DNA of 64,000 nucleotides from assembly GCF_013315695.1 (NCBI RefSeq), contig NZ_CP054353.1; one strand, written 5' to 3'. This DNA comes from Escherichia coli. GTDB lineage: Bacteria > Pseudomonadota > Gammaproteobacteria > Enterobacterales > Enterobacteriaceae. Below are positions 27,050-61,255 of the stretch, in pieces (within the stretch, counting starts at the first letter, position 1; every line of letters starts with the position of its first letter). The position numbers were made by a program, and so were the translations under genes. Under the pieces are notes generated by a model. It worked only from the letters and a program-made list of their open reading frames with translations, did not search any database and was not told where the DNA came from.

Positions 27050-27064
27050 GGTAATGACTCCAAC

Positions 27065-27568
27065 TTATTGATAGTGTTTTATGTTCAGATAATGCCCGAT
27101 GACTTTGTCATGCAGCTCCACCGATTTTGAGAACGACAGCGACTTCCGTCCCAGCCGTGCCAGGTGCTGCCTCAGATTCAGGTTATGCCGCTCAATTCGC
27201 TGCGTATATCGCTTGCTGATTACGTGCAGCTTTCCCTTCAGGCGGGATTCATACAGCGGCCAGCCATCCGTCATCCATATCACCACGTCAAAGGGTGACA
27301 GCAGGCTCATAAGACGCCCCAGCGTCGCCATAGTGCGTTCACCGAATACGTGCGCAACAACCGTCTTCCGGAGCCTGTCATACGCGTAAAACAGCCAGCG
27401 CTGGCGCGATTTAGCCCCGACATAGCCCCACTGTTCGTCCATTTCCGCGCAGACGATGACGTCACTGCCCGGCTGTATGCGCGAGGTTACCGACTGCGGC
27501 CTGAGTTTTTTAAGTGACGTAAAATCGTGTTGAGGCCAACGCCCATAATGCGGGCTGTTGCCCGGCAT
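27065..27568 (-). CDS. insB: IS1 InsB
   Basis: Identical 167-aa ORF. Confidence 0.9.
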
Positions 27569-27762
27569 CCAACGCCATTCATGGCCATATCAATGATTTT
27601 CTGGTGCGTACCGGGTTGAGAAGCGGTGTAAGTGAACTGCAGTTGCCATGTTTTACGGCAGTGAGAGCAGAGATAGCGCTGATGTCCGGCGGTGCTTTTG
27701 CCGTTACGCACCACCCCGTCAGTAGCTGAACAGGAGGGACAGCTGATAGAAACAGAAGCCAC
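27487..27762 (-). CDS. insA: IS1 InsA
   Basis: Identical 91-aa ORF. Confidence 0.9.
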
Positions 27763-27826
27763 TGGAGCACCTCAAAAACACCATCATACACTAAATCAGT
27801 AAGTTGGCAGCATCACCTTATTTTCA

Positions 27827-29146
27827 ATGCTAAATCATGAAAAAGGTCTATACTATTTGGCCCGTGATTTGCAGTGTTCTATTGATCCCCATAATTACCT
27901 TTTTATTCTTGTTTGCGCAAATAATGCATGGCAAAACATTCCTGCCGAGCGGCTTCGCTCATGGTTGGATAAAATGAATAAATGGAGCCGGCTAAACCAT
28001 TGTTCGCTTTTGGTAATTAATCCCGGAAATAATAACGATAAACAATTTTCATTGTTGCTTGAGGAATACCGTTCACTTTTTGGTCTTGCCAGTTTGCGTT
28101 TTCAGGGCGACCAACATTTGCTGGATATTGCCTTCTGGTGCAACGAAAAAGGGGTCAGCGCCCGTCAGCAGCTTAGCGTTCAGCAACAAAATGGTATCTG
28201 GACATTAGTTCAACACCAAGAGGCGGAAATCCAACCACGCAGCGACGAAAAACGCATTCTGAGTAATGTTTCTGTACTTGAAGGTGCGCCGCCGCTATCG
28301 GAACACTGGCAACTGTTCAACAATAACGAAGTTCTGTTCAATGAAGCCCGTACCGCTCAGGCAGCGACGGTGGTCTTTTCTTTACAACAAAATGCGCAAA
28401 TCGAGCCACTGGCCCGCAGCATTCATACTCTGCGTCGCCAGCGCGGTAGTGCGATAAAAATCCTCGTACGGGAAAATACCGCTAGTCTGCGCGCCACCGA
28501 TGAACGTTTGTTATTGGCCTGCGGTGCAAATATGGTTATCCCATGGAATGCCCCACTCTCCCGCTGTCTGACGATGATCGAAAGCGTGCAAGGGCAGAAG
28601 TTTAGTCGCTATGTGCCGGAAGATATCACTACCTTGCTGTCAATGACCCAGCCGCTCAAACTGCGTGGTTTCCAGAAGTGGGATGTGTTCTGTAATGCCG
28701 TCAACAACATGATGAATAACCCTCTATTACCTGCCCACGGTAAAGGCGTTCTGGTTGCCCTACGTCCGGTACCGGGTATCCGCGTTGAGCAAGCCCTGAC
28801 GCTATGTCGCCCTAATCGCACCGGCGATATCATGACCATTGGCGGTAATCGGCTGGTGCTGTTTCTCTCATTCTGTCGGATTAACGATCTGGATACCGCG
28901 TTGAATCATATTTTCCCATTGCCTACTGGCGACATTTTCTCAAACCGTATGGTCTGGTTTGAAGATGATCAAATCAGTGCCGAGCTGGTGCAGATGCGCC
29001 TGCTTGCCCCAGAACAATGGGGCATGCCGCTGCCTTTAACGCAAAGTTCTAAACCGGTCATCAATGCCGAGCACGATGGTCGCCACTGGCGACGAATACC
29101 AGAACCAATGCGACTGTTAGATGATGCTGTGGAGCGCTCATCATGA
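27827..29146 (+). CDS. bcsE: Cellulose biosynthesis protein BcsE, 5'-truncated by IS1 (439 aa remain; promoter and native start missing)
   Basis: Reading frame is open from the IS1 boundary (…[14 protein letters not shown]…); first ATG at 27827. Confidence 0.8.
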
Positions 29147-29334
29147 TGACCATCAGCGATATCATTGAAATTATTGTCGTTTGCGCACTGATATTTTTCC
29201 CGCTGGGCTATCTGGCGCGGCACTCTTTGCGACGCATTCGCGACACCTTACGTTTGTTCTTTGCTAAACCTCGTTATGTTAAACCGGCCGGGACGTTACG
29301 CCGCACGGAAAAAGCCAGGGCAACCAAAAAATGA
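29143..29334 (+). CDS. bcsF: Cellulose biosynthesis protein BcsF (small membrane protein)
   Basis: 63-aa ORF overlapping bcsE stop and bcsG start. Confidence 0.8.
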
Positions 29335-31010
29335 CTCAATTTACGCAAAATACCGCCATGCCTTCTTCCCTCTGGCAATACTGGCGCGGCCTTTCCGGCT
29401 GGAACTTCTATTTTCTGGTTAAGTTCGGCCTGTTGTGGGCGGGATATCTTAACTTCCATCCGCTCCTCAATCTGGTGTTTGCCGCGTTTCTGCTGATGCC
29501 CATTCCGCGCTACAGCCTGCATCGCTTACGCCACTGGATTGCCCTGCCGATCGGCTTTGCTTTGTTCTGGCATGACACCTGGTTGCCTGGCCCGGAAAGC
29601 ATAATGAGCCAGGGTTCGCAGGTGGCGGGGTTCAGTACCGATTATTTAATCGACCTTGTCACACGCTTTATTAACTGGCAGATGATTGGGGCCATTTTTG
29701 TTTTATTAGTGGCCTGGTTATTCCTGTCACAATGGATTCGCATTACCGTTTTTGTGGTTGCCATTCTGCTATGGCTGAACGTACTTACCCTGGCGGGACC
29801 AAGTTTCTCCTTGTGGCCAGCCGGTCAACCGACGACCACTGTAACAACGACGGGTGGTAACGCAGCGGCAACCGTTGCGGCGACGGGTGGCGCTCCGGTA
29901 GTGGGTGATATGCCCGCACAAACTGCACCGCCAACAACGGCTAACCTTAACGCCTGGCTGAATAATTTCTATAACGCGGAGGCGAAACGTAAATCGATCT
30001 TCCCGTCTTCGCTGCCCGCTGATGCTCAGCCATTTGAACTACTGGTGATTAATATCTGTTCGCTTTCCTGGTCGGATATAGAAGCCGCCGGGTTGATGTC
30101 GCATCCGCTGTGGTCGCATTTCGATATTGAGTTCAAGAACTTTAACTCCGCCACCTCCTACAGTGGCCCGGCAGCGATCCGTTTACTGCGCGCCAGCTGC
30201 GGGCAGACTTCGCACACTAATCTGTATCAACCGGCAAATAACGACTGCTATCTGTTTGATAACCTGTCGAAACTGGGCTTTACCCAGCACCTGATGATGG
30301 GACATAACGGCCAGTTCGGCGGTTTTTTGAAAGAAGTTCGCGAAAATGGCGGCATGCAGACCGAATTGATGGATCAAACAAATCTGCCGGTTATTTTGCT
30401 GGGCTTTGATGGTTCGCCGGTTTATGACGATACCGCCGTGCTTAACCGCTGGCTGGACGTTACCGAAAAAGATAAAAACAGCCGTAGTGCCACGTTCTAC
30501 AACACGCTTCCACTGCATGACGGCAACCATTATCCGGGCGTCAGCAAAACAGCGGATTACAAAGCGCGGGCGCAGAAATTCTTTGATGAACTGGACGCCT
30601 TCTTTACTGAACTGGAGAAATCGGGTCGTAAAGTGATGGTGGTCGTGGTGCCGGAACACGGCGGCGCGCTGAAGGGCGACAGAATGCAGGTATCTGGCCT
30701 ACGTGATATCCCTAGCCCGTCTATCACAGACGTCCCCGTTGGGGTGAAATTCTTCGGCATGAAGGCACCACATCAGGGGGCACCGATTGTCATCGACCAA
30801 CCGAGCAGCTTCCTGGCTATCTCCGATCTGGTGGTTCGCGTTCTTGATGGTAAGATTTTCACCGAAGACAATGTTGACTGGAAAAAACTCACCAGTGGGT
30901 TGCCACAAACAGCACCGGTCTCCGAGAACTCAAATGCAGTAGTTATTCAATACCAGGATAAACCGTACGTTCGCCTGAACGGCGGCGACTGGGTGCCTTA
31001 CCCGCAGTAA
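29331..31010 (+). CDS. bcsG: Cellulose phosphoethanolamine transferase BcsG
   Basis: 559-aa ORF with N-terminal TM helices and C-terminal alkaline-phosphatase-like domain. Confidence 0.9.
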
Positions 31011-59696: not shown

Positions 59697-60137
59697 TTAT
59701 TCGCTGTATTCTTCCTGGGTAACCTGTGTTTCTTTTGGTGGGTTTATTCCGACATCACGAATATTCTTCTGCACCGCTACTGCACCAAACAAGCTTAAGA
59801 AGAAAGCCAGCCCATAAAAGCCTTTTTCGCTGAGTAATAACGTTGCATTCCACAGACCTACCAGCAATAACGCAACAGAGATAATAAAGACCGTCAGGCA
59901 AGTCATATAATAAATGGAGGTGGTCGGTATGCCTTCATACTTGTCCCGAACGGTCTTTTGATAAGACGCCGCAGAAAACAGTCCTAATACCAGTACGGCA
60001 AAATAATATCCTTTTTCATTTAACTGCATCTCTGCATTCCATAGCCCTAACAGATAGGTAACGATACCACCAACGAGAGCTATCCATGACACAATACTAA
60101 ATGCCGGTGAATAGGTTGATATTTTGTTGTCCATCAC
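59697..60137 (-). CDS. yiaA: Inner-membrane protein YiaA
   Basis: 146-aa ORF with 4 predicted TM helices. Confidence 0.8.
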
Positions 60138-60179
60138 AGTATTCCTTTCATTCCTGAATGTGTAAGAGGTTTATGTTGC

Positions 60180-60487
60180 TCATGCCGGGCGAAACAAACG
60201 CATTTGACCAAACAAGCAGACAAAAAAGGCGATGGGATAAATCACCATTTCATAAGCATTGATAGGTGCGTTTAAAACACCGATAAACAAGAGACCGATA
60301 GTGATTAACGCCAGCAACTGGCAGACGCGGATAAAAAAATCATCCAGTTGCCCGAGTTTTTCTGCGCGAAGATATGCATAATTGCCAAAAGTTGCTGTCA
60401 TTAACACGCCAAGAAAATAGCCTTTTCCACTTAACAATGGGCATGAGATCCATAGCCCAACCAGATAAACCAGCGCCCCGACAACAA
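60180..60487 (-). pseudogene. yiaB: yiaB lacking its 5' end and promoter (reading frame runs into IS1)
   Basis: ORF 60180..60437 (paralog-like to yiaA); frame open up to the IS1 boundary with no native start. Confidence 0.7.
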
Positions 60488-60502
60488 GGTAATGACTCCA
60501 AC

Positions 60503-61006
60503 TTATTGATAGTGTTTTATGTTCAGATAATGCCCGATGACTTTGTCATGCAGCTCCACCGATTTTGAGAACGACAGCGACTTCCGTCCCAGCCGTGCCA
60601 GGTGCTGCCTCAGATTCAGGTTATGCCGCTCAATTCGCTGCGTATATCGCTTGCTGATTACGTGCAGCTTTCCCTTCAGGCGGGATTCATACAGCGGCCA
60701 GCCATCCGTCATCCATATCACCACGTCAAAGGGTGACAGCAGGCTCATAAGACGCCCCAGCGTCGCCATAGTGCGTTCACCGAATACGTGCGCAACAACC
60801 GTCTTCCGGAGCCTGTCATACGCGTAAAACAGCCAGCGCTGGCGCGATTTAGCCCCGACATAGCCCCACTGTTCGTCCATTTCCGCGCAGACGATGACGT
60901 CACTGCCCGGCTGTATGCGCGAGGTTACCGACTGCGGCCTGAGTTTTTTAAGTGACGTAAAATCGTGTTGAGGCCAACGCCCATAATGCGGGCTGTTGCC
61001 CGGCAT
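60503..61006 (-). CDS. insB: IS1 InsB
   Basis: Identical 167-aa ORF. Confidence 0.9.
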
Positions 61007-61200
61007 CCAACGCCATTCATGGCCATATCAATGATTTTCTGGTGCGTACCGGGTTGAGAAGCGGTGTAAGTGAACTGCAGTTGCCATGTTTTACGGCAGT
61101 GAGAGCAGAGATAGCGCTGATGTCCGGCGGTGCTTTTGCCGTTACGCACCACCCCGTCAGTAGCTGAACAGGAGGGACAGCTGATAGAAACAGAAGCCAC
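60925..61200 (-). CDS. insA: IS1 InsA
   Basis: Identical 91-aa ORF. Confidence 0.9.
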
Positions 61201-61255
61201 TGGAGCACCTCAAAAACACCATCATACACTAAATCAGTAAGTTGGCAGCATCACC

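Follow-up and report, generated by a model that had tools for sequence, protein, structure and literature searches.

Escherichia coli contig NZ_CP054353.1 (assembly GCF_013315695.1) contains, within the 64,000-nucleotide stretch analysed here (the window), three copies of the insertion sequence (IS) IS1, two of which stand in direct orientation on either side of a segment of about 33 kb that runs from bcsE to yiaB. The best explanation, held at a probability of about 0.9, is that all three are intact, potentially active and ordinary IS1 elements of the IS1A type in an IS1-rich E. coli lineage, and that the direct pair is a by-product of independent events and not a mobile unit. The feature is ordinary IS1 biology, a form of mobile-element wear that is already known, and its significance extends little beyond strain-level genome bookkeeping; it appears to record a recent burst of IS1 within a single clinical sublineage of E. 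coli.

Identity and flanks of the three IS1 copies

A repeat scan of the window returned a 768-bp IS1 element at three positions (Table 1). Direct string comparison demonstrated that copies 2 and 3 are the same letter for letter, and that copy 1 reads as their exact reverse complement. A first-pass annotation, made from the sequence alone, had reported that copies 2 and 3 share orientation and encode identical InsA and InsB proteins; the identity extends to the whole 768 bp, and at the nucleotide level the three copies are 100% identical, with no substantial divergence. Identity over a repeat of this length is beyond chance. The direct copies 2 and 3 lie 33,438 bp apart from start to start, and copy 1 is inverted relative to them, as had also been annotated, with 23,691 bp (3359-27049; previously rounded to 24 kb) separating copies 1 and 2. 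A 7-bp extension of the inverted repeat formed by copies 1 and 2 was rejected, being mismatched (AAAACAA versus the reverse complement of TTATTTT) and an A/T-rich coincidence.

IS1 elements are about 768 bp long, carry imperfect terminal inverted repeats of about 23 bp, and generate a target duplication of 9 bp (sometimes 8 bp). In each of the three copies the left (IRL, GGTGATGCTGCCAACTTACTGAT) and right (IRR, GGTAATGACTCCAACTTATTGAT) terminal inverted repeats are intact, as are the open reading frames of InsA (91 amino acids) and InsB (167 amino acids), and each carries the A6C motif of the -1 frameshift (TTAAAAAACTC; TTAAAAAAC), which yields a fused InsAB' frame of 232 amino acids. The copies belong to IS1 by length and inverted repeats, by insA and insB together with the frameshift, and, at copy 1, by a 9-bp target duplication; in all of these respects they resemble the IS1A of strain K-12, from which each differs by one base substitution (767 of 768 bases match) and by no structural feature. 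RefSeq labels the identical element in related genomes as an IS1A transposase with programmed frameshift.

Copy 1 is flanked by a perfect 9-bp target duplication, AAAAAACAA, on both sides (2582-2590 and 3359-3367), and is therefore a plain insertion. The flanks of copy 2 (left CTGTTCGCG, right TTATTTTCA) and those of copy 3 (left CGACAACAA, right AGTTTATCC) differ from each other, and neither copy has a target duplication. When the six 9-bp flanks of the three copies were compared in both orientations, no matching pair was found except the duplication of copy 1 itself. Reciprocal exchange between the copies was therefore rejected as having left no trace, because flanks of different copies never match.

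Two IS1-linked deletions and their order

The window is colinear with positions 3,669,768-3,733,890 of K-12 MG1655, with the exception of the three IS1 copies, four extra ldr units, an inverted IS150 at hokA, an ISEc45 in xylG, and two deletions; these two deletions coincide exactly with IS1 copies 2 and 3. A search of 5,426 complete E. coli genomes identified two near-identical genomes, AF3 (NZ_OZ547117, from blood, UK) and MSB1_4I (NZ_LR898874, from a rectal swab, Australia), both of which are colinear with the window. Apart from a cluster of substitutions in the ldr array, the window differs from AF3 at 4 positions in 49.9 kb and from MSB1_4I at 1 position in 37 kb, with no gaps. Of the junctions searched, one of copy 1, both of copy 2 and the right-hand one of copy 3 each gave exact single matches in AF3 and MSB1_4I only; the left-hand one of copy 3 (yiaB'-IS1) was found in 0 of the 5,426 genomes. 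A third genome, MS 21-1, served as the outgroup; it is about 99.9% identical over the interval between the direct copies, and its bcsR-bcsE region, yiaB, xylBAFGH and bisC are intact. The literature on strain MSB1_4I yielded nothing relevant.

Table 1. Positions of the IS1 copies and associated features in the window
Feature	Position	Strand	Description
IS1 copy 1	2591..3358	+ (IRL to IRR)	Simple insertion, yhjB-rcdB intergenic; also in AF3 and MSB1_4I
bcsR remnant	26984..27049	-	3' 66 nt of 189; AF3 annotation transferred by ungapped alignment
IS1 copy 2	27050..27817	-	Without target duplication; replaces K-12 3696063-3696700; both junctions in AF3 and MSB1_4I only
bcsE without first 243 nt and promoter region	27818..29146	+	From comparison with K-12 and AF3
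Interval between direct IS1 copies	27818..60487	.	32,670 bp of native chromosome, bcsE' to yiaB', K-12 colinear
glyS and glyQ	55092..58082	-	Essential genes inside the interval
yiaB without first 34 nt	60180..60487	-	New left junction of copy 3
IS1 copy 3	60488..61255	-	Without target duplication; replaces K-12 3727715-3732590
xylG middle fragment	61256..61822	+	Right junction of copy 3, exact in AF3 and MSB1_4I
ISEc45 (IS110 family)	61823..63264	-	Second xylG interruption, outside the IS1 pair

Copies 2 and 3 had each been annotated as a deletion junction, and this holds for both: target duplications are absent, and each copy stands in place of sequence that K-12 and close relatives retain. 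At copy 3, 4,876 bp are missing relative to K-12, comprising the 5' 34 nt of yiaB, all of xylB, xylA and xylF, and 390 nt of xylG. The corresponding IS1 in xylG of AF3 and MSB1_4I is likewise without a target duplication. It is accompanied by the loss of only 156 bp of xylG; on its left stand the 5' 234 nt of this gene and then the xylF-xylA-xylB region, which is intact. Compared with these two genomes, the right flank of copy 3 is unchanged, the new left flank starts at the IRR end, and a target duplication is absent, as expected of an adjacent deletion. An ancestral IS1 in xylG, already with its 156-bp deletion, has thus undergone in the window strain a further deletion of 4,721 bp that extended from the IRR end leftward into yiaB. 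This loss could have come about by an IS1-promoted adjacent deletion (intramolecular transposition), or by insertion of a direct-orientation IS1 nearby and subsequent recombination between the two IS1 copies.

The gene yiaB is intact in MSB1_4I and interrupted in AF3 by a separate IS1 (8342-9109 of the AF3 locus), which differs by 1 base from the other copies. This element was rejected as a precursor of the window deletion, since its orientation is opposite to that of the xylG IS1, 268 bp separate it from the yiaB junction of the window, and it has its own target duplication, AAACAAGCA. This small gene has received two independent IS1 events in sister isolates, AF3 and the window strain.

Because MS 21-1 is intact, AF3 and MSB1_4I hold the 156-bp state, and the left junction in the window is unique, the events can be placed in order. 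The ancestor of the lineage was intact; copy 1, copy 2 together with its 638-bp deletion, the IS1 in xylG with 156 bp lost, and ISEc45 were all acquired before AF3, MSB1_4I and the window strain diverged; and the window strain alone then lost the further 4,721 bp into yiaB. The ISEc45 in xylG is without a target duplication, is common to AF3 and MSB1_4I, and is absent in MS 21-1. The anatomy of the copies, the deletions and their order are read directly from these comparisons, and the molecular route of each deletion would be one of those described.

Missing target duplications have been attributed to adjacent deletion or to IS-IS recombination, and adjacent deletions often start small and grow (PMC11708052). 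In mutation-accumulation lines, IS1A was involved in 43 of 98 IS-linked deletions and ranked among the most active elements, and most of the 98 deletions joined a pre-existing copy to a new copy (PMC5009759). Copy 3 resembles the adjacent and IS-IS deletions of laboratory E. coli (PMC11708052, PMC5009759) in that the IS itself survives next to one unaltered flank, the sequence on its opposite side is new exactly from the IS terminus, and no duplication is present; the stepwise growth of the deletion, here from 156 bp to 4,877 bp, also resembles that of laboratory lines (PMC11708052). Dissimilar from those lines, the genomes here are natural isolates, in which single-step and two-step routes are inseparable. 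Seen in three near-identical isolates, the growth of a deletion anchored in xylG illustrates in nature what laboratory evolution had already demonstrated. Loss of xylose use is predicted for the window strain, given the deletion of xylA, xylB and xylF and the two interruptions of xylG.

At copy 2, 638 bp are missing, made up of the 5' 123 nt of bcsR, the 272-bp divergent intergenic region, and the 5' 243 nt of bcsE; the deletion is also 638 bp when measured against strains 08-00022 and MS 21-1. Whichever single insertion site is assumed, sequence has been lost on either side of the element. Copy 2 is an IS1 linked to a deletion that took the starts of bcsR and bcsE and the divergent promoter region between them, and its history could be an insertion followed by a deletion, or two insertions followed by recombination. 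Since the shared promoter region and both gene starts are deleted, loss of cellulose production is predicted.

The bcs locus has been struck repeatedly and independently by IS1 in unrelated E. coli. In strain 2EC1 a simple IS1 insertion, flanked by a target duplication, lies in the spacer between bcsR and bcsE; EcPF16 has a bcsC'-IS1-'bcsE junction, 20AR0300 has a bcsR-IS1-'yhjV junction, and 08-00022 has an IS1 inside bcsA. Junction searches, with clonality disregarded, placed IS1 near the bcsQ/R flank in 52 of the 5,426 genomes and near the bcsE flank in 22 of the 5,426. This recurrence may reflect a hot spot, or the loss of cellulose production may have been selected for repeatedly. In the window, bcsA is intact (23605-26223; 873 codons with one terminal stop); the AF3 gene has a nonsense codon at position 738, which corresponds to the difference at window position 24012. 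The bcsQ gene is intact in the window, unlike the K-12 pseudogene.

Genomes of the AF3/MSB1_4I lineage carry at least 40 pieces matching IS1 per genome, versus a median of about 10 places per genome. The lineage is thus rich in IS1, and the count fits a recent IS1 burst. All three copies in the window look functional and are potentially active, and activity is suggested because the sequence is intact and the lineage has new, specific sites, namely the yiaB copy of AF3 and the yiaB junction of the window. Alternatively, gene conversion could have homogenised three old copies, and the ldr array nearby in the same strain does contain a gene-conversion tract (described below). However, copies 2 and 3, and on more limited evidence copy 1, are absent from the 99.9%-identical MS 21-1 and are therefore young; recent origin by itself would be expected to leave them identical, with no need for conversion, and the abundance of IS1 in the lineage again fits a recent burst. 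Homogenisation of old copies is accordingly a most improbable source of the identity.

Several observations weigh against the reading of the three copies as ordinary IS1 insertions brought together by independent events. The two deletion routes proposed for copy 3 leave the same product and are indistinguishable from sequence; a precursor of copy 2, an IS1 with a target duplication at either junction, was not found among the 5,426 genomes; the window, AF3 and MSB1_4I display no duplication, inversion or transposition of the interval, and its dynamics are hypothetical; and the yiaB-IS1 junction is unique among the 5,426 genomes, with collapse of two IS1 copies by the assembler being conceivable. 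Under such a collapse, the left junction of copy 3 and the 4.7-kb xyl deletion would be an assembly artefact, produced when a new, direct IS1 in yiaB was merged with the IS1 in xylG. IS copies are classic misjoin sites, and AF3 reveals that yiaB does receive IS1 insertions in this lineage; however, the window is otherwise base-perfect against its relatives (1-4 single-nucleotide polymorphisms over 37-50 kb outside the ldr array, and no gaps), and IS1-adjacent deletions of such size are common. An artefact is thus unlikely, and even if it had occurred, the new IS1-yiaB junction would be real and only the deletion false.

The interval between the direct copies

The interval enclosed by copies 2 and 3 differs internally from K-12 by the four extra ldr units and the inverted IS150. 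The genes listed for it by the first-pass annotation, among them dppABCDF, eptB and glyQS, are borne out both by the K-12 gene order, with which the interval is colinear, and by the annotated genes of AF3 and MSB1_4I, and a tRNA-Pro(CGG) gene lies at 41341-41417. The bounds given to the segment of about 33 kb, bcsE to yiaB, are right as to content, but both end genes are partial, bcsE being without 243 nt and yiaB without 34 nt. The genes glyQ and glyS are reportedly essential in E. coli (Keio collection). Exactly one chromosomal copy of glyQS was present in 5,425 of the 5,426 complete genomes, and no duplication of glyQS was found among the 5,426; the single-copy result fits essentiality.

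The arrangement had been called composite-transposon-like. As a description of form this is apt, in that two identical, direct copies of the same IS flank a segment and the outer ends are intact in sequence; as a classification it does not stand, because no outer target duplication is present (left CTGTTCGCG versus right AGTTTATCC) and the location is neither non-native nor variable, the interior and both neighbours being in K-12 order. The interval has never transposed as a unit and bears no mark of movement, because it is colinear with K-12, has its native neighbours, and its outer ends share no target duplication.

Were the 34-kb IS1-bounded block a true composite transposon that had been acquired or transposed as a unit, its form would be that of Tn9, which also has two intact, identical IS1 copies in direct orientation. 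In the laboratory, pairs of an engineered, high-activity IS1 mobilised segments as long as 41 kb (PMC12065110), and the intervening DNA here is of comparable size. Dissimilar from Tn9 and the laboratory units, however, the pair in the window has outer flanks without a common duplication, encloses native DNA at its native site, between bcsR/bcsQ on the left and xylG on the right, holds an essential operon, and is accompanied by no evidence of movement. Furthermore, the relatives indicate that the two IS1 copies arose separately, one inside bcs and the other inside xylG, and glyQS is single-copy and chromosomal in nearly all of the genomes searched. When 24.8 kb from inside the interval were used to query 72,556 plasmid records, no IS1-bounded copy of the interval was among the matches listed. 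The matches that spanned the greater part of the query comprised mislabelled chromosomes, an unplaced linear contig and one noisy IncF record, and the others listed were weaker, partial matches in other genera. With respect to past movement, a composite transposon is effectively refuted, and we give it almost no credence.

The noisy record, CP088471.1 (pE17EC0383-3), is a 61-kb circular IncF record that holds a chromosomal block from bcsA to hokA and ends at IS150, not at IS1. Its match has very many gap openings, in keeping with a noisy assembly, and the block may be an F-prime-like capture or a misassembly.

As ordinary IS1 copies, the elements in the window nevertheless have plausible potential for rearrangement. 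Copies 2 and 3 form perfect 768-bp repeats, at which unequal crossing-over could give a tandem duplication or amplification, and in principle they are also a substrate for composite transposition; the reciprocal deletion would remove glyQS and be lost. Only a duplication, an amplification, a transposed copy or partial events could persist, because deletion of the interval removes the essential glyQ and glyS. Through copies 1 and 2, the 23.7 kb that separate them could be inverted. Deletion, amplification and inversion had been proposed in the first-pass annotation, and as potential these proposals are sound, since they describe documented behaviour of IS1 pairs (PMC5009759, PMC12065110); its statement that deletion of the interval would not be viable with glyQS inside likewise agrees with the single-copy state of glyQS in 5,425 of 5,426 genomes.

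Direct IS1A copies in K-12 recombine recurrently and delete the DNA between them (PMC5009759). The closest comparison is the CP4-6 prophage region of K-12, where two direct IS1A copies around about 11.5 kb are likewise a direct-repeat substrate and the DNA between them is recurrently deleted (PMC5009759); however, the CP4-6 deletion is neutral and has been seen repeatedly, whereas deletion of the interval in the window would remove glyQS, such that only a duplication could survive. In lines with an engineered IS1 of high activity, 99% of 457 rearrangements were associated with IS copies, and most duplications came about via composite transposition of IS-flanked segments, one of them 41 kb (PMC12065110). 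PMC4173774 also appears to support the standard recombination behaviour of IS1 pairs.

By extension, the interval might be an unstable unit, with a subpopulation that carries a tandem duplication or amplification (recognisable by a yiaB'-IS1-'bcsE junction) or a transposed copy, and with copy-number heterogeneity that has a phenotype, for example through the dosage of eptB or dpp. Such instability is very unlikely. In practical terms the region is one to flag, as short-read assemblies will break there and a duplication or inversion could arise.

Other features of the window

The ldr/rdl toxin-antitoxin genes form a tandem array at 31013-33347 with five units at a 483-bp period, where K-12 has one (ldrD). 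Relative to AF3 and MSB1_4I, the array of the window contains 12 clustered substitutions, all at 32695-32930, and these make that stretch identical to the preceding 483-bp unit. The stretch is a gene-conversion tract of at least 236 bp, and the tract is a sign of active repeat recombination in the window strain.

The IS150 at hokA/sokA (53355-54844) is in the opposite orientation to the K-12 IS150 and has nearly the same right junction, and the window keeps about 41 bp (53355-53395) that K-12 is without. This difference could reflect independent insertions at a hot spot, or an inversion together with a deletion in K-12. Lastly, bisC (46786-49114) is annotated as frameshifted in AF3 and MSB1_4I, and the window is identical to both genomes there; the gene is intact in MS 21-1.

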